Shown here in pieces: positions 264 through 61,729 of a stretch of 64,000 nucleotides of DNA. The position numbers and the translations under genes are program-made. The stretch is from NCBI GenBank assembly GCA_964106915.2, contig OZ066915.1, one strand, 5' to 3'. A model generated the notes under the pieces. That model had not been told where the DNA came from. It ran no database searches and was given only the letters and a program-made list of their open reading frames with translations. Source of the stretch: Podarcis gaigeae. Taxonomy: Eukaryota. Every line of letters begins with the position of its first letter. Positions within the stretch are counted from its first letter, which is position 1.

Positions 264-417
264 ACCCTGCTGGATTTGTGTAGTCGCTCCCCCTGTCAGA
301 ATGGTGGCCGCTGTATGCAAACAGGCACTACCTTATCCTGTGCTTGCCCTGGAGGTTGGACTGGGCGTTACTGCGACATCCCCAATGTTTCTTGTGAAGT
401 GGTGGCCAGGAACCGAG
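264..417 (+). CDS. NOTCH3: NOTCH3 exon (about human exon 19), EGF26 and start of EGF27
   Basis: tag|ACCCTG...CGAG|gtaagg; [17 protein letters not shown]...VARNRG; 154 bp. Confidence 0.93.
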
Positions 418-3400
418 GTAAGGAAACATGCTCCAGGGACACTGAAACGGAAGCCCTTCTTCTGGTGTTTTCTTCCTCATTTATTCTGCTATCTGCTTCC
501 TCAGTGACCTTGATGACGCATGTTTGTCATCCAGGCTCCCCAGCATTATCAGCTTATGCTCACTGGCAAAGCTGATACAGGGCTTCCAGAGTTGACACAG
601 TGAATGTTACTTACCTTCAGTGATGCGGGGACAATGCCCTTGGATTCACTGGTGCTCCAATCAATATTTCAGACGGCTATTCCCAGTGGCATTGGAAACT
701 AAAAATGCTCAACGTTTGAAGTCAACTTTCCCATGCTTCTAGGGGGCAGAATAAAAGCTGCAAATGTTGTTGCAGAAGTGGTAGTTCTGTATATGAAACT
801 CTGTAATAATTTCAAAATGGTGTGATAATGGCTGAGGGCAATGGAGAGTCGGTCTGGATTCCCTGGTCCTGCTATGGTACTGGAGCATGCTGCACGTTCT
901 GTCACAATTTAACATCCATTATCAAGACTCTAAAGAGGCTTTTTTTTACATTTTACAGAAATGTAAATTAAAATCTGACTTAGGAAACATTGGGCTATTT
1001 TGTGCTTCCCCAATAAAGTGTCCTTTAAATTGAGGTGGGTAATAAAGTCTAGTGCTTGGAGGAAGCCCTTGGGTTCTGTTCTTATGACCAACTTGCTTGT
1101 GCAATGTTGCTTCAGTCTTCACCTACCCTGCTTTTAGTCACTTTGTCTAATCATCCTTTGGAAGCAGGAGGGCAGAATATGTGGCAGTACACAATGTGTA
1201 ATTTGCTTTTCCGTACAATAGGTGTCACCAAAGAGCAAGTGTGTCATTACGGTGGCCGTTGTGTGGATGCTGGCAATACTCACTACTGCATTTGCAAAAA
1301 AAGCTACACCGGCAGCTACTGTGAGAGTGAAGTGGACCACTGCCAGTACAACCTGTGTCGAAATGGGGGTACCTGTCGCAGTTTTGTGGGAGACTACGTC
1401 TGTGAGGTGAGGGAGTCCTTGCAGCCAGTAACAGGCCAGGGTTTCTGGTGTCTCTTCAGAACTCTGGGGAACCTGGTAACATTTAATGATGAGTTGTTGA
1501 ATGTCCAGTGAACAATTGTGAAATAAGATAAGAAAATGGCACAAATCTGCAACTTATTTTCCCAGTAATTTAAACAAACAGACAAACCACGAAAACCCCT
1601 CTATTTTCTTCCAAAGTTTTATTTTGTTGAAATATGGATATGGATTATAATTGTTTTCCCACTACTGCAACCTTCCTTACTTTTGGTGGTAACTCCTATT
1701 TGATGGCTGGTCAGATTGGTTGAACTTCCACCATGCCTTACAAAATCCATACATCTTTTTTTTTATTCTTTGCCACTTCATAGTTGCATATCAACAATGA
1801 AGTCCATTGTGTTGTTTCTCAAATTCTCTGTAAGAGTTTTTTCCCATCGCGCCAGGCACAGCCAAACCAATATTTATATGCCCTGGTGGGGGATTCAGAG
1901 AGTTGTGTTATGTGTAGAAAACAGCCTGCCCTACAAAGTGAAATTTAAGGTCATTACCCCACCCATTTTTGCCTCTGGCTCCACCCACCACACGACTACT
2001 GGAAGGTTGCTCAGAAGGGAATGTAGCCATCAGACTGAAGAAGGTTCGCTATCTATGGTCTAGAGACGTTGAAGAAGTACAGCATTACACAGGAACCAAA
2101 CAGAAATAATACACATTTTTTTTCATCCACAAGAGCTGCAGTGTTTTCTAACAACATATGTTAGCCATGATCTTGTGATACAGTTTCATAATTATGTTTA
2201 ATGTTTGTTCTTGCTATGTATTTTCCTTCCTTTTTATGAAGCCAGACTGATCTATTTGTATAAATCTTGGAATAATTTGCCATAGTCTATTTGCCCAAAG
2301 TCCCACTGAAGTTTAATAACCTTAATTTGGACAAGAAAGAGGATCAGTTTGGACAACTTGAAGGATCTTTCCCTTCCTTATGAAATTGTACTAGTTTTAC
2401 TTGATTTTACACACCAATAATAGTACAGTTTAACAAACAAAACATAAATTTCAATGGAACCAAGAGCAGGAAGCCTTTTCAAGGATGCAAGGCTCCAGCC
2501 TTTCTGGCCCTTTTGTGCTCATTGCTGTTTTGTCCTGTTTGCTTCTCTCCTACTCCAGTGCCCGCTAGGGTTCGAGGGGAAAAACTGTGAGTATGACATT
2601 GATGAGTGTCAGTCACACCCCTGCCAGAATGGAGGGACTTGCATTGATCTTGTTGGCCGCTACATTTGCTCCTGTCCACCTGGAACTCTGGGTAAGTGCT
2701 CCTGGGTATAGGAAGACCTTTACCAATATTACCTGTAGTAGGAAAGTACAAGACTGGGGAAAGGATTTAAGTTCTGATGGCACAGGTTTCTCTTTGTTGG
2801 ATTTGCTATTTTGTTGAAGAATAGTGAAAGGGAGCTCTGGATTTCTCCTTAGGGCACAGGATGGAGAACATGGGCTCAGAGTTCTCCCAGGCCTCTTTTT
2901 GAGGGAGGACAGCTTCAGCAACAGTGCCCAGGGCAATGGATGGATGGATGTTGACTCACTGTTGGGCACCGTAAAGGGCGAGGAATCTTGTTTTTTCCAC
3001 AGAGACAATGCAAGGATTGTGAGAAGGAGGAAGAGGTTTGTCTTCCCTGAGTCTGGATGTTTAATGTGATGGCGTGTTTGTTATCTCTCTAGGTGTCTTG
3101 TGTGAAATAAATGAAGATGATTGTGCTATGAATCCTGGCTCCCGGGTCCCCAAATGCCTCAACAACGGGACATGTGTGGACAGAGTTGGTGGCTACCGAT
3201 GCAGCTGCCCACCAGGTTTCACAGGCGAGCGCTGTGAGGGAGACATCAATGAGTGCCAGTCCAACCATTGCCACCCACGCAACACACTTGATTGCGTCCA
3301 GGAAGCCAGTGACTACCACTGCATTTGCAAGCCAGGCTACACTGGTGAGTGACAGTGTGTTCTCAAGGGAGAGTGTGCCCAAAGCGGACCCCAGTGATGC

Positions 3401-6400
3401 GTAGAGGAGCCGGGCTCAAGGGCTGCAAGTAGGAAGAATCTCCCCCGTAAAGAAGTTAGGAGTTCATCTTCAACCAAGTGGGTGGAGGGGAATCCAACTA
3501 TGCAGCTAAATGCATATTTGTGATCTAAAACAAAGATTGGAATGGTGACTGAGTGAGATGGGCCTCTTTGGCCATTTCAGTGAGCAAATACGAGCTTTGA
3601 GAACTAGTGCTACGATGCAACGCCAAATATAGCAGGGTGGTGGTGGTCTTTGGGGCTAAGTTCTGCTGGAATCCATCAGTAATACTCTTGTTTTTCATAT
3701 CCTCAGGCCGCCATTGCAAGAACATTGTGAATGCATGTGACTCTCAACCTTGCCAGAATGGTGGGAAGTGTAATCCGGCAGTCAACCTGCCTCTAGGCTA
3801 CACCTGCCACTGTCCCCGGGTGAGTCCCCTACAACACAGCTGCTCACAGCAAGTGGCTAATGCAGCTCCTGTACACAAACAAGGCAAGGGGCTAGGCGAG
3901 GGAGAGAAAGGAAGAGTGCGGTTGCGAGGATTACGTGGGGGAACCATTAGGTTGATATGTTGGTGTTGTGCTATGAATGAGTTTCAGTACCTGTCAGGAC
4001 AAGGTTTCTGTCTGGGAGGCTTTTTGGAGGTAGAGAGTTTAGTGTCCTCCAATGCAAGGCTTGTCATGGAAGGAGTTTCTACTCGGGAGTGGCAGGAAAC
4101 AATTCTGCTGCGTGATCTTGTGGGAATTCTGGTTGTGAAACCTGCAAGAGAAGTTTGAAGCGGTGCCATAACACAATGCAGAAGTCTAATATTGGCTAAT
4201 AAGGGGAGATGGTGTTGGTGAGTGGTGCCCAGTACTGGAGGATATGGGGTGTGGGAAGGTACTTCTTGAGGGCAGGATATGAGTGCTGGGCCTTGAGATT
4301 TGTGGAGGGAAGAATTTACTCACCAGGCTGAGCGCTTGTAAGAGGACAGCTATGGTGCCAGAGGCTTTCTGTTGTTAGGCCAGCAGTTGGAACGATTTGA
4401 GGGCTTGGCCGGCTTTCCATTCCTAACTCTGCTTGTTATTCTTTTCCAGGGTTATTCAGGCATCCGCTGTGAGCGCATGCTCTCCTGCCGGGAACTCTCC
4501 TGCTTCAATGGCGGCAGCTGCCGGACCACAGCGCTGGGTCCTCGCTGCTCCTGCCTGCCTGGGTGGGCTGGACCGGAATGCCGCCTGCATGCCAACAGCA
4601 GCTGTGCCAGCATGCCCTGCCACAATGGGGGTGCTTGCCATGAGACTGCTGACCCCCCTTATTTTCAGTGCCTTTGTCTTGGTGACTACACGGGGTTTCG
4701 CTGCCAGACCCGCACCCTGAAGCTCCCCGAGGTCCACTGCCCGCTGAAGGAGTGTGCTGCAAAGGCCGGGGATTTCTACTGTGACAAGATGTGCAACAGT
4801 CCAGCCTGCCACTGGGATGGCGGTGACTGTTCCCTGCGAGTTGATGATCCCTGGAAGCAGTGCGAGAGCCCCCTGTGCTTGCAGCTCTTCAACAACAGCC
4901 AGTGTGATGAGATGTGCAACACTGCCGAGTGCCTTTATGACAACTTTGACTGCAAGAGCCATGAGTCCAGCTGCAAGTGAGTCCTGCCACTGCCTCTTGA
5001 GTAGGGGAGACATCTAGTTGTGTATACTGCACCAGAGACCCCTGGAATCAAGGGCCACCCCAACTAAATGAGGAACCAAGACTAATTTTAGGCAGTGTAG
5101 GGGTGCTGTGTACAAACATGGGTGCTTCCACTGAGACCTATAAATTTATCTCCATCCCTACGTCCGACACCAAACATGGCAGAGTATTGGTATTATTTGC
5201 ATGGATTCCTTCTATGTGTTCCACTTGACTAGCTCTGAGACTTGGCCATGTTAGCTGTGGGGTGTAGGAATCTGCTGCAGACCCATAATTCCTTGTGCCC
5301 TTTCCTCCTTATGGCTTAACAAGGCACCAGTGAGCTGTATTGGCATAGGGTTGGTTATGACAGGCGTGACTCAATTCCTTCTCCTCCTCCTTCTTCCACA
5401 GCCCTGTCTATGAGAAATACTGCTCAGATCACTTTGCTGATAGCCATTGTGACCAGGGCTGCAACAACGAAGAGTGTGGCTGGGATGGGCTGGACTGTGC
5501 ACTGGAGGTGCCCGAGCGCTTGGCAGACGGCGTTCTGGTCATCACTGTGCTGCTACACCCTGACGAATTGCTCCGCACAAGCGCCGTCTTCCTGCAGAAG
5601 CTGAGTTCCATTTTGAGAACCTCCTTGCGCTTCCGCCGTGACAAGGACGGTAACTTCATGATCAAGCCATATTACGGGTCTGGCAGTCGGCCGCCGTATT
5701 ATGGATCTGGCGGTCGGCAACGCAGGGAACTGGAACAAGAGATTATTGGGTGAGTCACACAGAGGAGCTGAAGAAAAGCAAGGAGCTTTGGGAGTTCAGA
5801 GAGCTGCTTGGTTGGGGGGGGTGTTATAGGACCCAAGCCTCAAGGAACGTAGAGGGAGGGATATAAGAAGGTTCTGAATTGGAAGGAGAGGTAGTTGGGC
5901 CCAGAGGCTCAGCTAAACTACTTCCAACAGCCTTCACAGAATAAGGCAGCTGTGGGGGGAAAAAACCTATAGAACTGGCATACAAATCTGAGGGTTCTGA
6001 GGAAATACTAACAAATCCACAAAAACTGTTTTGGAGCTGATAACAGGATTATTTAGTGATAGATTTCCATAACTAGATGGGAATTCATTCAAGCGTTTTT
6101 ATATAACTTTATTATATTATTCAAGAACCGCTTCTGATGTCTAACTGCTTTCTTAGCCAAAGTACCAGAAGGTGGCTAATGAAATAAAAGAAGCAAGCAA
6201 GTGCCTGAGATAGTGGTGGATCTCTGGAAGCTTTAGGTTAATGCCAAGCAAGTGGGTTGCATGCATCGTTAAGAACAAACGGGCTAAACGTGATCTGCTT
6301 AGGAAGAGTCCGCCTGCATTTTGTAAGAAGAGATTGTGCTTCACAAATTATTAAAGCTACTGATAGAATCTTGGGTGGTCTTTTCCTTGATGTGTGTATT

Positions 6401-9145
6401 TGGAAGTGCCCATTCTAAAATTCAGTGTGTAAAAAGCAACAGACCTTGTTTCCTGCACCAAAGAATAAATGGGGAGCAGGACCTTTTGTGGAGCTGGCTG
6501 ACTTGCCTTGTCCTAGGATTGTGTGTGCTACTAGATAAGGAGTTCTAGGCCTTCATAACACTTGCTTCTTCCTCCAGGTCTGAGGTCACTCTTGAGATTG
6601 ATAACCGACTCTGCTACCAGGCTTCAGACAAGTGCTTCCCTGATGCAGATAGTGCTGCAGACTACCTGGCTGCCCTGTCAGCGGTGGAGCGCCTAGAGTT
6701 CCCATACCCCCTCAAGGCTGTGCGAGGTGAGGGCAGCAGAGGAGTCATTTGCTGGAAGCAGAATTTGACTGGGTTTGGAGTTTACAGGAAGGTCACGACA
6801 GGGTCTCCTAATAGGGCAGTATTGTTTCTACAGGTGAAAAGATCAAAGAGGAAGGCGAACTTAAGCTGGTGCCATTGCTGGTGGTGGCATGCCTGATTCT
6901 GCTGGTGATCCTGGTGCTGGGTGTGCTAGTGGCACGGCGCAAAAGAGAGCACAGCACCCTCTGGTTCCCTGAAGGCTTCAGTCTGAAGAAAGAGAGCAGC
7001 AATAAGAACCGGCGTGAGCCTGTGGGTCAGGATGCCCTAGGCATGAAGTAAGAGCCTTTCATTCACCCAGAATGAAACCTCAGTTCCTGCAGCAGGTTTC
7101 AGCTTCTGCAGGGGGTGGTCAGCTATCTGTGACTTGTACTTTGCTCCCAATTGTGCTTTAGTTAGCTGATGGAGAACTTTTCCTTCATTTTGTGGTGTGG
7201 GAAAGAGCAAGAGGGTGTAAGCCCATAGGCTTGGTGTTTGCCCTGCACTACTGTTTGACTTCACTGTGTATCTTTCCCCCTGCTGCAGGAATATTGGCAA
7301 AGGAGAGAGCCTAATACCAGACAGCTCAGAAGACTGGCTGGAAGAGTGCCCAGAGGCCAAGCGACTAAAGGTATTCCTTTTGAGACTTTGTCTGGCTTAA
7401 GAAAGGGGATTCCAGCTCCTCACAAGAGCTACCCCACTGCCTCCCCCACCCTTTCTCTTGGTGTCTGCAGGTATTAACTCCCTGCATCAGACTACTGTGG
7501 GCCTGACTCATTAGTGTTTGCAAGCAGCAATGAAGTAGTTTGATGCACTGGGTGAATAGGCGCATATTATGTCTTTCCATAATAGCTACAGGCCCGTGTT
7601 CATCCTTGCCAGGTGGAGGAGCCAGCCATAGATCGTGAAGACCCTGTGGACTGCCGTCAATGGACACAGCATCACTTGGTGGCAGCAGACATCCGCATGC
7701 CGCCATCTATGGCCCTGACGCCACCCCAGGGTGAATTTGATACTGACTGCATGGACGTCAATGTCCGTGGACCAGGTAATTGGGAATAAGGGCAGCGAGT
7801 TGGGTCTGCGAGCGCTCATATGGAGCTTTTGCAGACAGTGTCTGATGAACAGAATAGATCTGTTACTTCCTGTCTTCTGTAACAAGTCCCAACATGTTTT
7901 GTTCTAATCCAGTATGTGGCACATGGGAGAGGAGAAACAGAGCAAATCTTTTAAAAAAAGCCAAACACAACAGCAACAACCCTTGTTGGGATCTCCTTAC
8001 AGATGGTTTCACTCCACTTATGTTGGCCTCCTTCCGTGGTGGTGGTGAAATGGAGACTGAACTGGCTGAGGAAGAGGAAGCAGATGACTCCTCTGCCAAC
8101 ATAATCTCGGACCTAATCTGCCAGGGGGCTAACCTGAGTGCCCAGACAGACCGCACAGGTGAAACTGCCCTGCATTTGGCTGCCAGATATGCACGGGCAG
8201 ATGCTACCAAGCGCTTGCTGGATGCTGGTGCTGATACCAATGCACAAGACAACACAGGGCGCACACCACTTCATGCTGCCGTGACTGCTGATGCCCAGGG
8301 AGTCTTCCAGGTGGGTCTCACCCAATGGACTAGTGTGGCCTTTTAAATCCTGGACATAAATCCCCCTCCTCTGTCTTGCTCATGTTAACAGCATGCTCCA
8401 GTTCCCTTTTTAAGTGGAGAGCCCCTGTGATGGTTACCACCTGGAAGTTATTCTTGTGTTATCCACTCATTACCTCTCTGGGGACACAATGAAAAGTTAG
8501 TTAGCCTGGCTGTACTTTGCACTGATAAGAGTGAATGAGAACCTAAGAACTGTACTTGAGGCAATAGTGTTACTGTGCACATGCTGCCTTGGATGGTGTG
8601 TGTTTTGGGCACCAACCTAACACACCAACATGTTCTGTTGCTAGATCCTGATCCGGAATCGATCTACAGACTTGGATGCCCGAATGGGGGATGGTTCAAC
8701 AGCACTGATCCTAGCAGCCAGGCTGGCTGTTGAGGGCATGGTGGAGGAGCTGATTGTCTGCCACGCTGATGTCAACGCTGTGGATGAGATGGGTACGTAA
8801 CCCCCAGGGAGGCTGCCGGGCTGAGTTCTTTTACTTGGCTAGTCTGCGTTATGCTGAACTTCAGCGGGAGGCCTCCTCAGAACTACAACATGCATTGCAA
8901 ATGTATTCCAAATTAATTCCACAAATGCACTTGCTGAACCTCCAGTCTGGTTGCCCTGGGCATCTCTCAAGCACCAGCAATTCACTTGGCCATTCTCCTG
9001 ACTCCTGCTTCCCTCTCTAAGCTCCTTAGATGCATTCTGATGAGGCTCTGCAGGGCAAGAGCCACTGTCATCATAGAGCCCTGAGTGCCAGAGGTGGAGG
9101 GAGCAAAAGGATGGATTACACACATGACAAGGAGTGTGGGATTAT

Positions 9146-9198
<53 letters not shown>

Positions 9199-11667
9199 AC
9201 ATTATTGAGAGTCAATAGGACACCCCCCTCTCTGTTACCTATTTTATTGGCTCTACTTTTTTCAGTCTGCCTACTGAACTGCTGGAAAGGGGACAGAAAA
9301 CTCTTGCCAGAACTGATTGGGTGCAGAGGATTTCCCTCTCCAAGCATCCATTGCTGACATACTCTTGCCCCCAGCCAGAGTTCTAAACTATTTGCTTGCA
9401 GAGGGCATCCCCTGCCCTTCCAGCATTCCACCCATTTTGCCTTTTCCCATTACAATCCACCACCCTGCCCTCCTTTCCCCCTCTCCCACCCGCATGAAAA
9501 TAAGCCAAGATCCATGTGTGGCCCTTGTTCCTGATGTATGAAGACAATGCCTTACTGTGTGGAGGGGTATTAAGAGAGTAGGGCATGGTCTTGGTGTGCA
9601 GGGTCGAAATGACAGAAGACCTTCTGGGGAACCTGCTGGTGATTCTGGGGACCCTGTAGCTGCTTGACTCTTGCATGGACCTGCATCTCCATAACAAAGC
9701 AGCTGATTTGCTGAGAGGACAAATCCAGAGTCTACAGAAGGTCCAGCATTAAAGCACAGAATAAGCAGCAACAGGCGAGGATGGTAGTGAGGAGCAAGGT
9801 GGTAGCTTTAGATTGAGGGGAGTTAGGGGAGCTGATGCAGCAGAATACTTCTAGTGGGATCTGAGACTCTGATACTGAGAACTTACAGTAATCCTCATGG
9901 TGTCATTCCTCTCAGGTAAATCAGCCCTGCACTGGGCAGCAGCTGTCAACAATGTAGAGGCCACGATTGCGCTGCTGAAGAATGGGGCCAACAAGGACAT
10001 GCAGGACAGCAAAGTAAGTTCTTTATTGCATTTTTTTTCCTGTTTAGGGAAGCTTTTAATGTTTGATGTATTACAGTATTTTAATATTTTTTTGGAAGCC
10101 GCCCAGAGTGGCTGGGGAAGCCCCGCCAGATGAGCGGCGTGTAAATAACAAACAAACAAACAAACAAACAAACAAACATCATCATCATCATCATGTGATG
10201 CTTTAAGTTTCATGTGTCCCTATAACTTGGCAGAATAACATCTGTTGCTGTAGGCTTCTTCTGACAGGAGCAGCTCTTTCCATCCCTGTAAATGTCTTTA
10301 AGCTAATCCTGGTCGCTCCCCTGCCTGTATATGGTGGGGAGGTTTACAGGGGGACAAGAAGCTCATGGCTCCTTTTCTAGAACGCTTTGTAGTATGTGCT
10401 CTTCATCACCCTGTCCTTTCTGCGGCAGGAGGAGACACCGCTGTTCCTGGCAGCCCGGGAAGGCAGTTATGAGGCAGCCAAAATCCTGCTGGATCACTTT
10501 GCCAACCGCGAAATCACAGACCACATGGATCGCCTGCCACGCGACGTGGCACAGGAGCGCTTGCACCACGACATTGTCCGGCTTCTGGATGACTACAACA
10601 CCGTGCGCAGCCCACAGGGGGCGTTGCCCGCCGGCCACTCCCTCTCCCCTCTCATGTGCCCTCCCAATAGCTTCTTGCCCAGCTTGAAGCCCACGCCACA
10701 GGGCAAGAAGAGCCGGCGCCCTAGCACCAAGAACGCGACGGCAGGCAGCAGCGCCAGCCTGGCAAGGGAGAGCAAAGAGGCCAAGGCACGTGCCAAGAAG
10801 CTCAACCTGGAGTGCCAAGGCTCTCTCCTGGAGAGCTCTGTCACCCTGTCTCCCGTTGACTCACTGGACTCCCCCTATGTGCCCAACCCTGCCTCGCCAG
10901 GGGTCTTCCACCCAGCCAACTCCTCCATGTCAGTGCCCTCCACTCCCATGGTCCATGGCATGATGGAGGCGCCCTTTGCTGTCAGTCTGGCACGCCTGAG
11001 CGACCTAGGGGATGGCACCCTCCTCTCCATGAACCGCCTCTCAGTGCCACCAGGCCGCATGGGGCTCAGCTTGGGCATGGTGAGCCCCGTGGCCATGCCC
11101 TTTGATTGGCATGCCCGTGTCCCCACTTCCCAGTGCCAGCCAATCATAGGGGTTGTGCACCCTGCCGCCTCCCATCCCAACCTGCACCAACCAGGCCAGG
11201 CTTTCCCACCAGGGCTGCTTCTGCCCAGCCACATGGCCATGGGGCACAGCTCCCAGGGTTTGCCCAACTCAGCTCCTCCACAGACCAAGGAGGCAGCCCA
11301 GCCCATGCCCCCGCCAGCTACCACCATGAGAACCAACCAGCCTGTCTCGCCCCAGGAGGCCCAGGGGGCGCCCCGTGCAGGGCCCCCACAGTACCTAAAG
11401 CCCGCAGGGGTGGAGGATTACCCGACACCCCCTTCTCAACACAGCTACACACAGGGGCAGGACGCGACCCCCAAGCACTTCCTCCATCCGCCCAGTGAGC
11501 ACCCCTACCTGACTCCTTCGCCAGAGTCCCCAGAGCAGTGGAGCAGCCCCTCGCCCCACTCCTTGTCCGACTGGTCTGAATCTACTCCCAGCCCGACTGT
11601 CCTGGGGCCCAGCCACACCCAGCTGCCTTCGGTGGAGCCATCCGCTAAGATGCAGGTGTTTGCATGA
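264..11667 (+). CDS. NOTCH3: NOTCH3, 3' part of the gene (last 15 coding exons; 5' exons lie upstream of the window)
   Basis: Spliced exons give EGF repeats, 3 LNR, HD, TM, RAM (WFP), ankyrin repeats and PEST. NOTCH3-specific segments: [80 protein letters not shown]. All introns are GT-AG with compatible phases. Confidence 0.96.
1222..1406 (+). CDS. NOTCH3: NOTCH3 exon (about exon 20), EGF27-28
   Basis: atag|GTGTC...TGTGAG|gtgagg; [13 protein letters not shown]...GDYVCE; 185 bp. Confidence 0.94.
2160..2360 (-). mobile_element. Decayed L1/Tx1-type LINE reverse-transcriptase fragment
   Basis: Minus strand reads [23 protein letters not shown], resembling the LANRL...IHxDQxGFIKGR RT motif; boundaries approximate. 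Confidence 0.5.
2559..2691 (+). CDS. NOTCH3: NOTCH3 exon (about exon 21), EGF28-29
   Basis: ccag|TGCCCG...CTGG|gtaagt; [17 protein letters not shown]...CPPGTLG; 133 bp. Confidence 0.95.
3093..3344 (+). CDS. NOTCH3: NOTCH3 exon (about exon 22), EGF30-31
   Basis: ctag|GTGTC...ACTG|gtgagt; [10 protein letters not shown]...CKPGYTG; 252 bp. Confidence 0.95.
3707..3819 (+). CDS. NOTCH3: NOTCH3 exon (about exon 23), EGF32
   Basis: tcag|GCCGC...CCCCGG|gtgagt; [21 protein letters not shown]...CHCPR; 113 bp. Confidence 0.93.
4450..4976 (+). CDS. NOTCH3: NOTCH3 exon (about exon 24), EGF33-34 and LNR-A/B
   Basis: ccag|GGTTAT...TGCAA|gtgagt; contains [17 protein letters not shown] and [17 protein letters not shown]; 527 bp. 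Confidence 0.95.
5402..5749 (+). CDS. NOTCH3: NOTCH3 exon (about exon 25), LNR-C, HD-N and S1 furin site RQRR
   Basis: acag|CCCTGTC...ATTGG|gtgagt; [13 protein letters not shown]...[12 protein letters not shown]; 348 bp. Confidence 0.95.
6578..6726 (+). CDS. NOTCH3: NOTCH3 exon (about exon 26), HD-C
   Basis: ccag|GTCTGAG...CGAG|gtgagg; [12 protein letters not shown]...[10 protein letters not shown]; 149 bp. Confidence 0.95.
6834..7047 (+). CDS. NOTCH3: NOTCH3 exon (about exon 27), transmembrane helix and RAM
   Basis: acag|GTGAAA...ATGAA|gtaaga; [38 protein letters not shown]; 214 bp. Confidence 0.95.
7289..7370 (+). CDS. NOTCH3: NOTCH3 exon (about exon 28), RAM linker/NLS
   Basis: gcag|GAATATT...CTAAAG|gtattc; [27 protein letters not shown]; 82 bp. 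Confidence 0.92.
7613..7775 (+). CDS. NOTCH3: NOTCH3 exon (about exon 29)
   Basis: ccag|GTGGAG...CCAG|gtaatt; VEEP...[14 protein letters not shown]...DVNVRGP; 163 bp. Confidence 0.95.
8003..8310 (+). CDS. NOTCH3: NOTCH3 exon (about exon 30), ankyrin repeats
   Basis: acag|ATGGT...TTCCAG|gtgggt; GFTPLMLAS...[11 protein letters not shown]...DAQGVFQ; 308 bp. Confidence 0.95.
8645..8792 (+). CDS. NOTCH3: NOTCH3 exon (about exon 31), ankyrin repeats
   Basis: ctag|ATCCTG...ATGG|gtacgt; [14 protein letters not shown]...DVNAVDEMG; 148 bp. Confidence 0.95.
9150..9195. repeat. (CT)n microsatellite
   Basis: Read directly from the sequence. Confidence 0.95.
9916..10013 (+). CDS. NOTCH3: NOTCH3 exon (about exon 32), ankyrin repeat
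   Basis: tcag|GTAAA...AGCAAA|gtaagt; [32 protein letters not shown]; 98 bp. Confidence 0.95.
10095..10195 (+). mobile_element. LINE 3' terminus (probably L2-type) with (AAAC)n/(ATC)n tail
   Basis: gccgcccagagtggctggggaa...ccagatgagcggcgtgtaaata plus simple-repeat tail; related copies near 15395-15478 and 27025-27070. Confidence 0.5.
10429..11667 (+). CDS. NOTCH3: NOTCH3 last coding exon (about exon 33), ankyrin end and PEST
   Basis: gcag|GAGGAGACACCG; [15 protein letters not shown]...[28 protein letters not shown]...MQVFA*; stop TGA at 11665-11667. Confidence 0.96.
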   Translation, partial: EETPLFLAAREGSYEAAKILLDHFANREITDHMDRLPRDVAQERLHHDIVRLLDDYNTVRSPQGALPAGHSLSPLMCPPNSFLPSLKPTPQGKKSRRPSTKNATAGSSASLARESKEAKARAKKLNLECQGSLLESSVTLSPVDSLDSPYVPNPASPGVFHPANSSMSVPSTPMVHGMMEAPFAVSLARLSDLGDGTLLSMNRLSVPPGRMGLSLGMVSPVAMPFDWHARVPTSQCQPIIGVVHPAASHPNLHQPGQAFPPGLLLPSHMAMGHSSQGLPNSAPPQTKEAAQPMPPPATTMRTNQPVSPQEAQGAPRAGPPQYLKPAGVEDYPTPPSQHSYTQGQDATPKHFLHPPSEHPYLTPSPESPEQWSSPSPHSLSDWSESTPSPTVLGPSHTQLPSVEPSAKMQVFA

Positions 11668-30574: not shown

Positions 30575-30650
30575 TGCTTTCGTAGATTTTCACGGGTACA
30601 GGAATGCAGGTTTTGGTGTCCTCGGGAAGACACCCGAGGACACCAAAACC

Positions 30651-30655
<5 letters not shown>
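30575..30655. mobile_element. Short inverted Penelope-like end fragment inside a (TA)n tract
   Basis: Matches the element end at 57542-57603; 23-bp inverted arms at 30604-30626 and 30633-30655; (TA)n on both sides. Confidence 0.8.
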
Positions 30656-54679: not shown

Positions 54680-57158
54680 GTAAGTCCACAAGCTTGGCAT
54701 CTTCCCAGGGGTAAACATTTTGACTTGGTGCTCTTGCAGAAGGAGGGGGGGGGAGTGTACTGTTTATTCAAACTGGAGTGGGTGTCGGTTGCTGGAGAGT
54801 GGAAAGAAATTAATTGCCCTCCAACTCTCAGCTGAAACCAGGAGCAGAGGTGGGGAGCTCAGTTAGTGCCTTTCCAAGAATGAACATGGTAGGATTGTTC
54901 CTTCTAAATTTCAGTGGGGTGCTACGATGGAGGGGTGGCTAACTTGTGGTTCTTCAGTTGTTGCTGGCCTCCATCTCACATTGGCCCCTGCTAGCATGTC
55001 CAGCAGTCAGGGGTGATGGGAGCTGGGAGTCCGGCAAGATGTGGACAATTGCAGGCTGTGCTGATGTGAGTTGGAGGACCTGCTCTTTGAGGATTCAGGA
55101 GCAGAGCTAAGTTCATCATGTTCGGTTTCCAGACTGTACTGCAACAGTGTGGTGGGAGATACCCACAACCTGCACACATTTAACTTGTGTGCATTCAGCT
55201 TTATGCACTTGGCAAAAAATTAAAAAAAAGAGGTGAAAAGGGAGCAGACGTCCAGGAAAAAATGCTTTGGCAGTCCCACCCACCATTGCACCCACGGTGT
55301 TTTGACGATACACGATTTTGGCTTTAGGCATGATCCCCGGAATGTAACTCCCGCGCAAGCATTAAAAATTAGTCTGAAGCATGGATTTAGTAGTTTTGAA
55401 ATGTGGTTGGCTCAAATGGGTGCAGTCATCTCCTAGATATATATATGCTTGGAGCTCTGTGATCTGGTGATCACGATGACAGTAGCACAGGCTTCACTAG
55501 CTCTGGTGTTTTCCAGGTGTTTGGGACCACCATTCCCCATCAGCGACTGTGCTGGCTGGGCCTGGTGGGAGTTGTGGTCCACAGCATCTGGAAGGCACCA
55601 GGATGGCGAAGGCAGCATTAGTGGCTGGGCGCTGCTGTACAGAGGCTGTTCTGGGCATCTGTTTGATGTAACTGATGGTTTGGGGAAGAGGGCGGTGGAG
55701 AAAAAGATTTTCTGTGAAAGGATCTTCCTCCCACCAGCCCAAAGGCAGGCTCTGAATTGTGGGGAGGACGCTCGCTGCTCCTTTTGACAGCCTTGTGTAA
55801 ATGCTGCTCTCCCCAGCGCTGTCCTCTCCTGTGTAGTGGCATGGTGGAGGCCCTGAGGGTGACAGACAAATCCCCAAAACTCCTTCCCTCCTCCCTCCCT
55901 CCTTGCCTGCCTCTGTTAATACAAGGAGCGTCTTCTGTGGCGCCACAGCTTCAGGGTGGAGCCTTTACAAGCTTAGATCCCAGCCACCCCGTGGGAACCC
56001 CTTCCCTCATCTCTCTGTGGGTGGGGAGGGCTGAGGTGTGGCTAAAGACACCACAGGAGAAGTTTCTTTCTACCCCCCACCCCCACCCCAAGGTCTTTTG
56101 ACTCTCCCTCTTGGGAAGCTGAAGCCTCCTGTTGCTCCCTTCGAAGCCCCGTTGGTTTTTAAAGTGCTGATATTATCAAGGAGAGAAGATGGGCAGCAGC
56201 GCACTAAAGGTTAGATGGCCAGCATTAGGAATATCTGCCTCATGCCAGATGAGGCCACTCGCCCCTCCAGCTGCGTGTTGTTTACACTGACTGGTAGCAG
56301 CACTCCAAAGGTTCTTCCTTCTCTGGAGACTCCCAGGGATTGAACCAGGGACCCTCTGCTGGCAAAGGAAGTCATTTACTGTTGGTCTAAGGCCTGGCAT
56401 GCACAAACATCTGTACACGTGTGGGACGGAAGGCCCTCTGTACAAGCGGCTAGTCCTTTTTCACTTGTACACAAGCACATGGGAATTCAGGTTTCCTTTA
56501 ACTTGGGTTGGACCTTAGTGGTTTGTAGTATAGCAAATCCTAAGAAGGAGGGAGAACAGGATAATATCCTAGAATGAAGGGTGCTTTCTTTTTCTTTCTT
56601 TTTGTTCTGGTTTACTGTTGCAGGGGCGAAACAGGGGCCTGGTTTTGTGTGTCCCCTTTTAGAAGCACCTATAACTAGCCGGCTCGGAGTGAGTGTGAGG
56701 TTGAGCAATAGTAAGTGAACTTGGGGAAACTTATCTGCAATAGCTGACAACTCCACATCCTATCTCCCTTTCCAGTTTATCTATTTTCAGGAAGGGCTGT
56801 TGTGAGGAGGGGATGTGGTTGGGAAACACTGCGGGTGTCTCCCTCTCCCCTCTGCAAGAAAACAGATGGGGAAAAGAGAGCCATGAAGGGTGGGAACCGT
56901 ACACTTATTTAGGTGTGAAAGGCAAGAATTGTGTGAGAAGAGAGAGTGGGGTTCAGAAGGAGGCTGAGGTTGGAGTCTGTCTGTCCCTCACACCGAAGCC
57001 CACCCTACTGTGTATGAGGGTTTTTAAAAATGAAAATTGTTGAGGTGTTGATATGAGAATTCCAAATGGATACACTGGCAGCAAAGGAGGTGGCAAAAGA
57101 AAGGAAACTCAGTTAAAAGGCTAGGATACCAAGGAAAGAGTGGAAGGGAAGTAAAAGT

Positions 57159-57289
57159 NNNNNNNNNNNNNNNNNNNNNNNNNNNNNNNNNNNNNNNNNN
57201 NNNNNNNNNNNNNNNNNNNNNNNNNNNNNNNNNNNNNNNNNNNNNNNNNNNNNNNNNNNNNNNNNNNNNNNNNNNNNNNNNNNNNNNNN
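57159..57289. other. Assembly gap (131 N)
   Basis: N run abutting the left arm of a perfect palindrome. Confidence 0.98.
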
Positions 57290-57601
57290 CTTCCCGTGTA
57301 AAAGTTGGGGTGTCTAGGCGACGTTTCGACGAGGTCTCACTCGTCATCTTCAGGCTGGTGCTTTCGGCTTCTTGTTACTGGAACAGAGCGGGATCTCAAT
57401 GTTTGAGTTCCTCTACAGTATTTATAGGAACTCAAACATTGAGATCCCGCTCTGTTCCAGTAACAAGAAGCCGAAAGCACCAGCCTGAAGATGACGAGTG
57501 AGACCTCGTCGAAACGTCGCCTAGACACCCCAACTTTTACACGGGAAGACACCCGAGGACACCAAAACCTGCATTCCTGTACCCGTGAAAATCTACGAAA
57601 G

Positions 57602-57605
<4 letters not shown>
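57290..57605. mobile_element. Penelope-like element end arranged as a perfect inverted repeat, next to (TA)n
   Basis: 123-bp arms at 57290-57412 and 57426-57548 with a 13-nt spacer; hammerhead motif in each arm; (TA)n at 57606-57648. Confidence 0.8.
57483..57520 (+). ncRNA. Minimal type I hammerhead ribozyme motif (mirror copy on the - strand at about 57318-57355)
   Basis: CUGAAGA (57485-57491), U, stem II GACGAG/CUCGUC, GAAA (57511-57514), C, GUC cleavage triplet (57516-57518); palindromic ACGU stem III; stem I is weak. Confidence 0.7.
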
Positions 57606-57650
<45 letters not shown>

Positions 57651-60600
57651 CACTATTATTAGTACATGTTTTTCTTTTCTATTGTGCATGAATGTAACAG
57701 AGTATGTATGTGTTGATGGCGAAAACAGAAAAGCAAATAAAAAATATTTTTTGGGGGTGGGGGGAGTTTGCTTTTGCGGTGGAGCAGAGGAGGACCTGGA
57801 ATATGGGGGAAGCAACACAAAGCAAGCGCTAGGAAGGGTGTACAAATTGTTAAAGCCCAGAAAGGGGGCTTGGGGATTTCTGCTTTCTGCTCCCTGGGCC
57901 CAGCAATTATCATTCTTCCGCCTGGTGCTTGTGTAATGGGAGGGGGAGCGGGGAGGGGGAATCCCCGCTGCTGGTGCGGCTCTGCTGGCAGGTGCCCGGC
58001 GGGATTGCTCCGCGCTGAGCGGGTATCTCTGATTGCTATTAATTTTGCTCTGGTGATTCTGTCAAGGCTGGGAGGAGAGGCAAGAGCGCCAGCTAGCTGG
58101 AGGGAGGGGTGTCCTCTATCTCCCTTGCTCCCAGCTGTGTGCTGGGGAAATGGTGCCCATGGAAGCAATTGGAAAGGGAAGGTTTAATTTTGCACAGGGT
58201 TGAGGGTGAGGAGAATGATGGAGACTCTTGATTTTGATCCGGGCATTTGGAGCCCCTCCCAAGGAAAGTGTAGGTTGCGCGCCACATGGGGCCAAGATGT
58301 TTAGAGAGAGCACAGCTAGGCTGCCGCCACACCCTGAACTCCAAGAGTATGGGAGAGCAAAGCAGCGGATTAGTTGCTCTGTGGAGGGAGCTGGTGGTGG
58401 CAGCCATGTTGGCTTTCTGCCAGCAATGATATTGGAAAGCAGACATCAGAGCCAGAGCCGAGCAGTGTGGCTATTATCCGACTCCCCTGGCCTCATCTGA
58501 AACGGCCTCAGTGTATTTATCCCACAAAGGCCTTATTGAGGCCCAAGCAGCTAGAGGGAGCGTGGCTGTGTCTGTTTTGGGCCATGTCTTTGAAGGAGGG
58601 GAAGAAGAAACCAGGGGAACAGGGTTTTTTAGCCAGAGGTTCCCCGTCCTGAGGTGTGCTAGGTGTGGCCCCAGCTCTGAAGGGGAATGAGAGGCTTGTT
58701 CTCAGGCTTCTCCCTTCAGGCTTGGCACATCCCTTATTCTGCATTATTCTCTCTCTGTCTCCCAAGTACGAGGGCCCCATTAACACCCAAGCTTGATTCA
58801 CTGTGGAGTCAACAGCTTTTTCCTCTGCTGCAGTTCCCGCTCTGCTGGTGCAGAAAATCAGGCTGCCAGGAAGGGCTGGGTGTGGTGCACCTAGAGGCCT
58901 GCATCTGGCCTGCTTGCTGCCTTTTGCTTGCAAGGACCCAGTTGCAGTTGGGGACTCAGTGAACTCACATTTTGATACTCCTGCTCTTCTTCCTTTGAAC
59001 CCACCTCCTCACAAAAAGCCCCCATTCCTGGATCAGGCTAGAGCTGTAGTCATTTGAATAACCAAACAGACATGCAGTGTTTGTATGGCTACATAACCCA
59101 TTCTTAAAATGTTTGCCATGGTAGCAGTAAAGTTTTATTTGACGGTAGCCATGACAAAACGTAGGTCTTAGGATCTGCGTTAAAGATGGGTGGGAGCTTT
59201 CATTGCATTTTACAGTTGTGGTCTGACTTTCCATAACTTGTTCAGGCAGGGGTTTCAGTAAAAACTTTGCGCAGGGTGCACCAGTTTGGCCAGAACTGAG
59301 TAGCAAAGTTTGTCCCTTTTTGAATGCTGATCCCATGCCTGCATGCAGGGAGAAGAGTTCAGTTTAGTCCAGGAGCAGAGAACCCTTAGTCCTCCAAGTG
59401 ATGTTGGTCTTTAACTCCCATCAGACCCAACTAGGATGGCCAGTGGTCAGGGATAATGGGAGTTGTAGTCCAGCAACATCTGTAAGGCCACACATTGGCT
59501 ACCTTTGGTCTAGTTTCATTAGTTCAACATTTTATTTTCTTGGTGAAAAGGCTTCAGACTTGCAATTCCTTCCGTGCAGCCTGAAGAGGTACAGTCCAGA
59601 GAAACCTTCATCACTTGAATTTAGCTGATTGTATAAACTCTTCATCCTCATATCGTTGTGAGGCAAGCCTTGAGCAGTATTCAGTTGTCCTGTTGGCACA
59701 AGGATTTCCACTTGGGCAACTGGGCTTCCACCACTACCACCTTTGCCTTGCATGTGCCATGCAGCCTCCCTAAATCTACTCCAGAGGATTGGAGAAACCC
59801 CTGGAACAGCTTTGCAGGGGGAGGAGAGGGGAAGAACATTCCGTTGCACAAGCAAAAATCCCCGTGCTGATGGAACATTCACTTTATGCTGCGTTGGATA
59901 TTCCCCTCCCCCCTTGACTCAGCAGAGACTTCACTTTTTTCCATTTCTTGTTAGCAGATCACTGCTGGCAGAAAATCTTCTAGTGCTGCTTCTGCCATGG
60001 GGGTGAGGTTGTAGGAGGGAGAGTTCCCTGTCACATTTTCTGTTCAGGAGCTTACCAGACAAAAATACCATTATTCAGGGCCTGGGACCTTCCTTCATAT
60101 TTCCATAGGAAGTGGCTCAAGTTTATCCCACCTGCTTAAACCTCTTGGCTAGAAGGATTTCAGCTTTGCTTGGAGAGACCACAGGCAATTTTGGGTCTTC
60201 CAGTCTAATGTTCTATCTGCTGCTTCTCTCCCCATGTCTGTACATCACAACTGTGACCTTTGTCAACCACTGCAAGTCCACTGTGGACTGCAAATGGGTC
60301 CTATCAAGAAAGATGCTGTCTTCCATCTCCCCCTGGCACTTTAGAATATCAGAAGGCAGCTGGCATTGTTGCTAGGGTCTTCGCAGAGATAATTGGCTTG
60401 TAGGATATCCTATTAGACCTGCCCAGAAGCAGCAGAGGCTGTTGCTCCTGGACCCATAGTTCCTGGGCTTGGGGCACTGAGAGATCTTGCATGCAGAATT
60501 TGGAGGGAAACACGGGGGCAGGCAGACTGCATGCATGATGACGATGCTGGTAATAAAGCCCAATATCTGCACCTAGCACATGTTCCCTTTGCCCCCAGGC

Positions 60601-61216
60601 TGCTCTCATCCAGGTTCTCCTTAACAGTATTAAAAGCTTAAGGCAACTAATCTTCTCTCCTGTGGTGTAAGACTGGGACTGAGCTTGCTCAGTCAGGCAC
60701 TGCAAGGGGGATTCTCATGTTACCATGATCTGGCCCAAGACTCCAGTCCTTGTAGTGGGGTGGGACAGCTGAAAATAATGCCAATATATTTCACATCTGG
60801 CAACTAATGCACCCTTTTGGCTTCAGATAGTACATGGGTAGAGGAGGCTAAAAAGCCCAGGACACAAATTTGCACAGCCCTCTAGCAACTATGGCGGCTC
60901 ATTTACCAGAAGTAATGTATTTAGCATTAACTCTGAAAGTGTATACTAGATTCTGACCAAACTAAGCCCCCTAGAGCAAAATATACACCAGGAAGCTTAG
61001 TTTGGTCAGAATCGAGTATGCACTTCCAGAGTAAATTCATCTCCGTGCTGCCAACCTGCATCTGCTGGTAACTCCATTCATTCTGCTTATTCACCCCAGC
61101 CAAGACGCTGTCCTTCCAGCATGCCCCCGACACTCAGTGTGCTTTATTACACTGGAGAAAGCAGCTTATGCCATGGAGGGCTAGCCTGTTGCCCTGTGAT
61201 AGGAGAGCAGAACATA

Positions 61217-61475
61217 CCATATTTTTTGCTCTATAAGACTCACTTTTTCCCTCCTAAAAAGTAAGGGGAAATGTGTGCGTGTCTTATTGAGCAAATGCAG
61301 GCTGCGCAGCTATCCCTGAAGCCAGAACAGCAAGAGGGATTGCTACTTTCACTGCGCAGCGATCCCTCTTGCTGTTCTGGCTTCTGAGATTCAGAATATA
61401 TTTTTTCTTGTTTTCCTCCTCCAAAAACTAGGTGCGTCTTGTGGTCTGGTGCATCTTATAAAGCGAAAAATACAG
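61217..61475. mobile_element. Tc1/mariner MITE (CCGTA-type termini) with an internal hairpin
   Basis: TA+ccatattttttgctctataaga ... tcttataaagcgaaaaatacag+TA. Confidence 0.82.
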
Positions 61476-61729
61476 TAGTTGATCTGTGTCTCTGAACTTT
61501 AGGAAGCAGGTAGAAAAGTAAACTGAACTTGGCAATTCATCCTGAGGAATGATGGAGCTTGCTTGCACCTGTCCCAGCATCAATGGGAAGATAGTTCTCC
61601 CTTTTCCTGTGTAATTTCACACCTAGGGGTGACACCAACTATGTGGCTGGCTCCATTTGTGGGGTAAGGATACCCTCGTGGCTGAACACAGGTTGCCTAA
61701 CTTGTCTCTCTTCCTTGCCACACGTACAG

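Follow-up and report, generated by a model that had tools for sequence, protein, structure and literature searches.

The palindrome within an intron of a CAMSAP gene is a real feature of the sequence and almost certainly represents an insertion of an abundant, young Poseidon-type Penelope-like element (PLE), composed of two 5'-truncated ends. The whole account, in which these ends lie back to back after cutting and copying at both strands of the target, with a hammerhead motif as cargo, is in our view quite likely correct. The window (the entire stretch of 64,000 nucleotides analysed here) contains two arms of 123 bp, 57290-57412 and 57426-57548, which are exact reverse complements, as the first-pass annotation had stated. 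The 13 nt between them (57413-57425), presented there as a spacer, are derived from the element and form part of the right arm, the longer of the two. The insertion was also placed correctly in intron 2, as it lies between the exon 2 donor (GT at 54680) and exon 3, starting at about 61730, of a plus-strand gene that we take to be the paralogue CAMSAP3. The borders proposed for the element stood only in part: the TA tract does reach 57648 and the left arm does enter a stretch of N, but (TA)n most probably represents the target site, outside the element, and not its terminus. The N stretch hides the outer end of the left arm, including its end class and any target-site duplication.

Table 1. Features of the palindromic insertion and its host intron (window coordinates).
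Feature	Position	Strand	Basis or remark
Left arm	57290..57412	-	Inverted 5'-truncated pLTR (terminal repeat); reverse complement of 57426-57548, matches the intact copy L034
Right arm	57410..57605	+	5'-truncated pLTR up to the tailed end (+115 of the ORF), end class B; 100% identical to L034 over 199 nt
Head-to-head junction overlap, 3 nt, shared by both arms	57410..57412	.	L034 match starts at 57410; left arm exact to 57412
TATA-like box (TATTTATA on +, TATAAATA on -)	57419..57426	+	Sequence; promoter role putative
Hammerhead motif, minimal type I	57483..57520	+	Predicted cut after C57518
Hammerhead motif, mirror copy	57318..57355	-	Sequence
Tail, 29-31 nt, bounded by the family's fixed 3' ends at +84 and +113/115	57575..57605	+	
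(TA)n tract, likely target site	57606..57648	.	TA repeat after 243/266 family ends
Host CAMSAP intron 2	54680..61729	+	Pfam PF25532 on exons 1 and 2, splice sites; 3' boundary approximate

Two other features of the window may be recorded. Upstream of CAMSAP, at 264-11664, lies the 3' part of a Notch gene, presumably NOTCH3-like, recognized by eye from its EGF, LNR, ankyrin and PEST exons. Downstream of the palindrome, an imperfect 23-bp inverted repeat at 59397-59480, giving a weak match to a miRNA model under the gathering score, is probably a remnant of a SINE or MITE.

The Penelope-like origin suggested in the first-pass annotation was borne out at the locus L034, where the arm lies within direct repeats flanking an intact ORF of 991 aa. 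This ORF encodes a reverse transcriptase (RVT_1 at 358-537, E=7e-16) followed by a C-terminal GIY-YIG endonuclease (705-758, E=7e-4), both in a single frame, which is the layout of EN+ PLEs; the GIY-YIG score (20.2) is below the Pfam cut-off of 22.6, and the domain is in register with that of the Anolis protein P0045. Inspection of the ORF and of the alignment revealed no Zn-finger-like Cys linker between the two domains. According to the accessible part of Craig et al. 2021 (PMC8557442), such a linker is present in Neptune and Nematis. Residues 200-800 share 98% identity with a Podarcis muralis protein and 46% with an Anolis carolinensis protein, and the comparison of the ORF with P0045 gave 45% identity over 773 aligned residues. 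Judged by these sequence characters, the element is likely a PLE of the Poseidon type.

The family is abundant: a 23-mer taken from the hammerhead matches the 1.5-Gb genome exactly at 7,214 places, and a control at none. The claim of a recent insertion holds at the family level: the right arm is identical to L034, and 127 of 128 aligned pieces exceeding 100 nt show an identity of 99% or more, this near-identity among copies indicating that the family is young. Partial tandems are present as well, in the form of direct repeats at L034 and of a tandem period of 2,965 nt, in addition to the inverted arms. Full-length copies or 2,965-nt tandem arrays were noted at L034:1845-5116, G000:C17:14843404-14849357 and C17:47241592-47256044. 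Since such copies exist and 192 copies genome-wide extend into the ORF and carry its start, the family is probably still active.

Assignment of the palindrome to non-LTR retrozymes was considered and rejected, as the insertion is inverted and not a head-to-tail tandem. Head-to-tail arrays do occur elsewhere, at L223 (G000:C17:24645900-24647900), L224, L225 and L226, with units of 167-177 nt that contain the hammerhead and the ORF start; the array at L223 comprises eight units, 99-100% identical to the element. These arrays look like non-LTR retrozymes just born from the element, in line with the accessible part of a recent report (10.64898/2026.07.22.740005), and could form double hammerheads within one RNA. 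Additionally, the element (L034:2157-5116) was covered end to end, with few differences, by the sequencing runs X15, X19, X7 and X12 from three other organisms. In two of the runs, which we guess to be RNA, contigs less than 95% alike constituted 543/793 and 225/311, compared with 86/1241 and 67/585 in the others, and T>C places numbered 20 and 11 versus 3 and 7. Both excesses could reflect A-to-I editing of inverted copies or the presence of older subfamilies.

Copies of the family stop at two fixed 3' places, +84 of the ORF (A, tailless) and +113/115 (B, with the one-sided tail of 29-31 nt). There are 3,482 A ends genome-wide and approximately 4,100 B ends, the latter estimated as 2 x 2,066 forward matches, the reverse matches being double-counted. 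A TA repeat follows 243 of 266 family ends (loci L103-L222), and the location of the ends within (TA)n masks target-site duplications. Head-to-head pairs were found in 36 of the 50 clusters formed by 99 of the first 100 matches listed, the last match being left out. Junctions were classified in two sets. The first, derived from 68 segments in the first 19.5 Mb of C1 (those beyond 14.6 Mb were chosen as likely pairs from end lists and are uninformative on the frequency of inversion), contained 53 A/B pairs among 62 junctions, with five B ends joined to an odd or shortened end, two A/A and two B/B. The second comprised 120 of 208 near-symmetric junctions, 40 from each of three windows, and contained 102 A/B pairs, 11 junctions with one odd end, three extending into the ORF and four with like ends. 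Altogether, a tailless end was paired with a tailed one at 155 of 182 junctions.

The copy under study fits this pattern: its right arm has a B end, its spacer is derived from the element, and its arms overlap by 3 nt at the junction. Only the tailed end is visible here, and the left arm is expected to end at A, shortly inside the N stretch. An overlap of 1-4 nt characterized 73 of the 120 junctions in the second set, 14 were abutting and 33 contained extra letters; zero-spacer junctions accounted for 26 of 50 among the matches listed at one hot spot (hand count). Among the 102 A/B pairs of the second set, the A arm reached further 5' in 54 and the B arm in 24, while both were equal in 24 (sign test p=0.0009, median 2 nt). 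In the window copy the tailed arm extends further on the 5' side, as it does in the minority of unequal pairs (24/78). Arm lengths within pairs were correlated (Spearman 0.57, 53 pairs), and in 17 of the 53 the arms ended no more than 20 nt apart, against 2.3 expected, a number reached in none of 10,000 permutations. The window itself holds a miniature head-to-head insertion of the same family at 30575-30655, with a tailed arm of 52 nt and a tailless arm of 33 nt, located between two (TA)n tracts and too short to contain the hammerhead. At L226:749-2354, a head-to-head Penelope junction is interrupted by a 1.6-kb element that has terminal inverted repeats, is accompanied by an 8-bp duplication and is assumed to be hAT-like.

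The 5' ends of the arms cluster at hot spots. As many as 168 arms start at 57449, compared with 12 at a control base, and this position lies exactly 30 nt after the TATA-like box at 57419. A second pile-up is observed at 57486, which accounts for 24 of the 80 arm starts in its window. We infer that both hot spots correspond to RNA 5' ends. At the predicted hammerhead cut site, 29 arms start versus 12 at the single control (2.4x, p=0.012), an excess confounded by the self-complementary GC with which the cut site begins and by a DNA-transposon insertion (L226) contributing at least one of the 29; a little cleavage at the hammerhead may still occur in vivo. The region around the cut site has the lowest number of near-symmetric junctions (48 versus 106, 54 and 87 in three upstream windows). 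The candidate explanation of tandem arrays as units beginning at the cut site was dropped, since the excess is weak, has one control and is subject to the GC and L226 confounders.

We favour two-sided priming as the probable origin of the inverted insertion. The protein of the element would nick a (TA)n tract on each strand and reverse-transcribe its RNA from the two nicks. Each nick would prime a single cDNA, from one or the other of the two internal start sites. These cDNAs would run toward the 5' end of the RNA, halt close together and be joined through microhomology of 1-4 nt, and the template would mostly be uncut RNA. Strict A/B pairing is to be expected from two primers acting on two start sites, and the hot spot at 57449, far above the cleavage site (168 versus 29), fits both-strand priming on uncut RNA. 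According to the accessible sections of Frangieh et al. 2024 (PMC11167929), the purified protein of the green anole element acts on both target strands, cutting and extending each, and is predicted to form a dimer, its reverse transcription starts at two internal sites bounding the tail, and the green anole hammerhead cuts only in the presence of the protein and is dispensable in vitro.

A more detailed version can be offered tentatively, with the chances slightly against it. The two halves of a protein dimer may initiate on the same uncut RNA at sites separated by 30 nt, with the cDNA from the tailless site leading and that from the tailed site following. Both would reach the end of the template at transcription starts within the terminal repeat, which lie 30 nt past the TATA-like box and directly ahead of the ATG, and joining of the two cDNA ends would yield the mirror insertion. 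If true, this reading explains both the tail and the inverted structure, shows that the hammerhead is bypassed during transposition and turns the young family into an in vivo record of the Penelope copying reaction.

The same element could alternatively have been inserted by a single cDNA that folds back and copies itself, the endonuclease then trimming one end to leave the tailless arm; self-priming of PLE cDNA is proposed in the accessible part of Arkhipova et al. 2013 (PMC3846280) and resolution by the endonuclease in that of PMC8557442. The correlation of arm lengths, including the permutation result, speaks for such a route, as does the 13-nt spacer of the window copy, which lies on the tailed arm just as fold-back of the tailed strand predicts. 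However, across near-symmetric junctions the tailless arm reaches further 5' more often, which is the opposite direction, and in numerous pairs one arm or the other is longer by hundreds of bases. The frequent zero-spacer junctions do not come from a single snapped-back strand, which cannot form them. We consider fold-back unlikely, and two-sided priming is retained as the preferred mechanism.

The hammerhead carried by the element is complete in its core. All parts were located in the sense orientation of CAMSAP in the right arm (CUGAAGA at 57485-57491, an extra U, helix II GACGAG/CUCGUC at 57493-57510, and GAAAC-GUC at 57511-57518) and mirrored on the minus strand of the left arm (57320-57353), in agreement with the first-pass annotation, and the motif overlaps the ATG of the ORF (57491) as well as the stop of the ORF, in another frame (TGA, 57499-57501). 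The characters of minimal type I hammerheads are present, namely C3-A9, G12-A15.1, U16.1-H17, the extra nucleotide after A9 and G10.1-C11.1. Helix III is palindromic and loopless, so that the ACGU/ACGU duplex (-1.7 kcal/mol) pairs between two molecules only, as proposed for a dimer-type motif. Helix I consists of just two consecutive base pairs (duplex -0.3 kcal/mol) instead of the 4-5 bp of the minimal type, and the same flanks recur in 159 motif matches (loci L001-L102, with overlapping loci counted repeatedly). No spliced form lengthening helix I was found in the pLTR by eye. The search with Rfam hammerhead models, named as a check in the first-pass annotation, returned no hammerhead at E<=1 on 55000-60000 and none at E<=10 on 57440-57605; the output consisted only of hairpin-driven miRNA matches below gathering scores.

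Folding predictions support the earlier view that the antisense arm blocks the ribozyme. With one arm alone, helix II forms with a probability of 0.98-1.0 and helix I with less than 0.01, whereas with both arms together the probability of either helix is 0.0, the two-arm duplex reaching -262 kcal/mol versus -35 for a free arm. The idea of a two-state switch was not supported: the antisense arm emerges first during transcription and, by prediction, pairs with the sense arm ahead of completion of the core. At all five lengths tried for the nascent transcript, the right arm was wholly paired. The lock is thus predicted to be constant. In the host pre-mRNA, the hammerhead is predicted to be buried in the 123-bp duplex, to lack a second free copy and not to cut the intron. 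The accessible part of Cervera and de la Pena 2014 (PMC4209133) describes single minimal PLE hammerheads as not cleaving in vitro. The motif is likely the cargo of a terminal repeat and probably inactive, and we are highly confident that neither the hammerhead nor the palindrome has a regulatory role in the host gene.

These predictions bear on a regulated-lock reading, according to which the pre-mRNA either folds a ribozyme that cuts the intron or forms a silencing duplex, with the arrangement kept by selection in the CAMSAP gene. The intact sense core and the modelled block by the duplex agree with it. So does the depletion of non-LTR retrozymes in Xenopus introns described in the accessible part of 10.64898/2026.07.22.740005, which implies that active intronic ribozymes may be selected against. 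Nevertheless, the reading is very improbable, considering the predicted full pairing, the weakness of helices I and III and the behaviour of single minimal hammerheads. Inversion was moreover suggested as the reason why a sense ribozyme is tolerated, but it is the genome-wide default of the family and gives no sign of selection in the CAMSAP gene; a head-to-head palindrome has a sense hammerhead and an antisense arm on both strands, whichever its orientation, so the geometry needs no selection here. An intronic duplex of 123 bp could plausibly be acted on by ADAR.

An assembly or library fold-back artefact beside the gap would account for a left arm that enters N at a locus whose right flank was not reached by contigs of the runs X1, X3, X4 and X5, but it is hardly credible given hundreds of such junctions that are clear of N and have a different end on either side, the 33/52-nt miniature, contigs of the independent run X7 with loose ends turning into the reverse complement of the element, the +84 end followed by (TA)n shared by several runs, and the family-typical 3-nt overlap. 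A non-autonomous palindromic mini-element copied as one unit, suggested by one identical junction at 26 of 50 places among the matches listed, is just as implausible, since junctions are scattered over the element, the recurring one lies at a 5'-end hot spot seen also in single arms, and that of the window is absent among the 182 examined.

The inverted architecture of PLEs with hammerheads on opposite strands has already been published, and the palindrome of the window is an ordinary example of it. Inverted pLTRs with a one-sided tail of 30-40 bp are described in the accessible parts of PMC8557442 and PMC3846280, metazoan PLE hammerheads paired on opposite strands 100-700 bp apart in that of PMC4209133, and the construction of the inverted insertion and its tail is named as an open question in PMC8557442. 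The titles and abstract openings listed in a search outside subscription journals and Repbase contained no proposal of two-sided priming in PLEs, and a literature search of the same coverage listed no description of the Podarcis Penelope family. The single locus matters little and the family modestly; the junction statistics are the part worth keeping. An intact ORF together with thousands of near-identical junctions provides sharp predictions for the existing in vitro system, namely strict pairing of unlike ends, a leading arm and the position of the RNA start. Thousands of perfect inverted repeats, many of them presumably intronic, would also supply these lizards with considerable amounts of double-stranded RNA.

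The closest known system is PAc, the Poseidon of Anolis carolinensis, and the Anolis protein P0045 is likely PAc or a close copy. As far as the accessible sections of PMC11167929 show, both elements encode RT and GIY-YIG in an ORF with its ATG where helix II begins, and with the cut site about 25-26 nt past the start codon; the fixed ends lie about 113 nt into the ORF in the Podarcis family and 111-118 nt in PAc, which likewise has a tail between two ends and AT-rich targets. In contrast to PAc, the Podarcis elements form a separate lacertid family with a longer C-terminus (991 versus 836 aa) and are almost always located beside (TA)n. Compared with the typical PLE motif in the accessible part of PMC4209133, helix I of the Podarcis copy has 2 bp instead of 4-5, as in Drosophila virilis (2), and helix II has 6 bp instead of 7-8. 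The EN+ PLE insertions described in the accessible parts of PMC3846280 and PMC8557442 likewise include a head-to-head inverted 5'-truncated copy, a one-ended tail, a palindromic junction and a TATA-like motif in the pLTR. In contrast to those insertions, both arms studied here are short remnants lacking the ORF, and the thousands of near-identical copies of the Podarcis family make the junctions countable.
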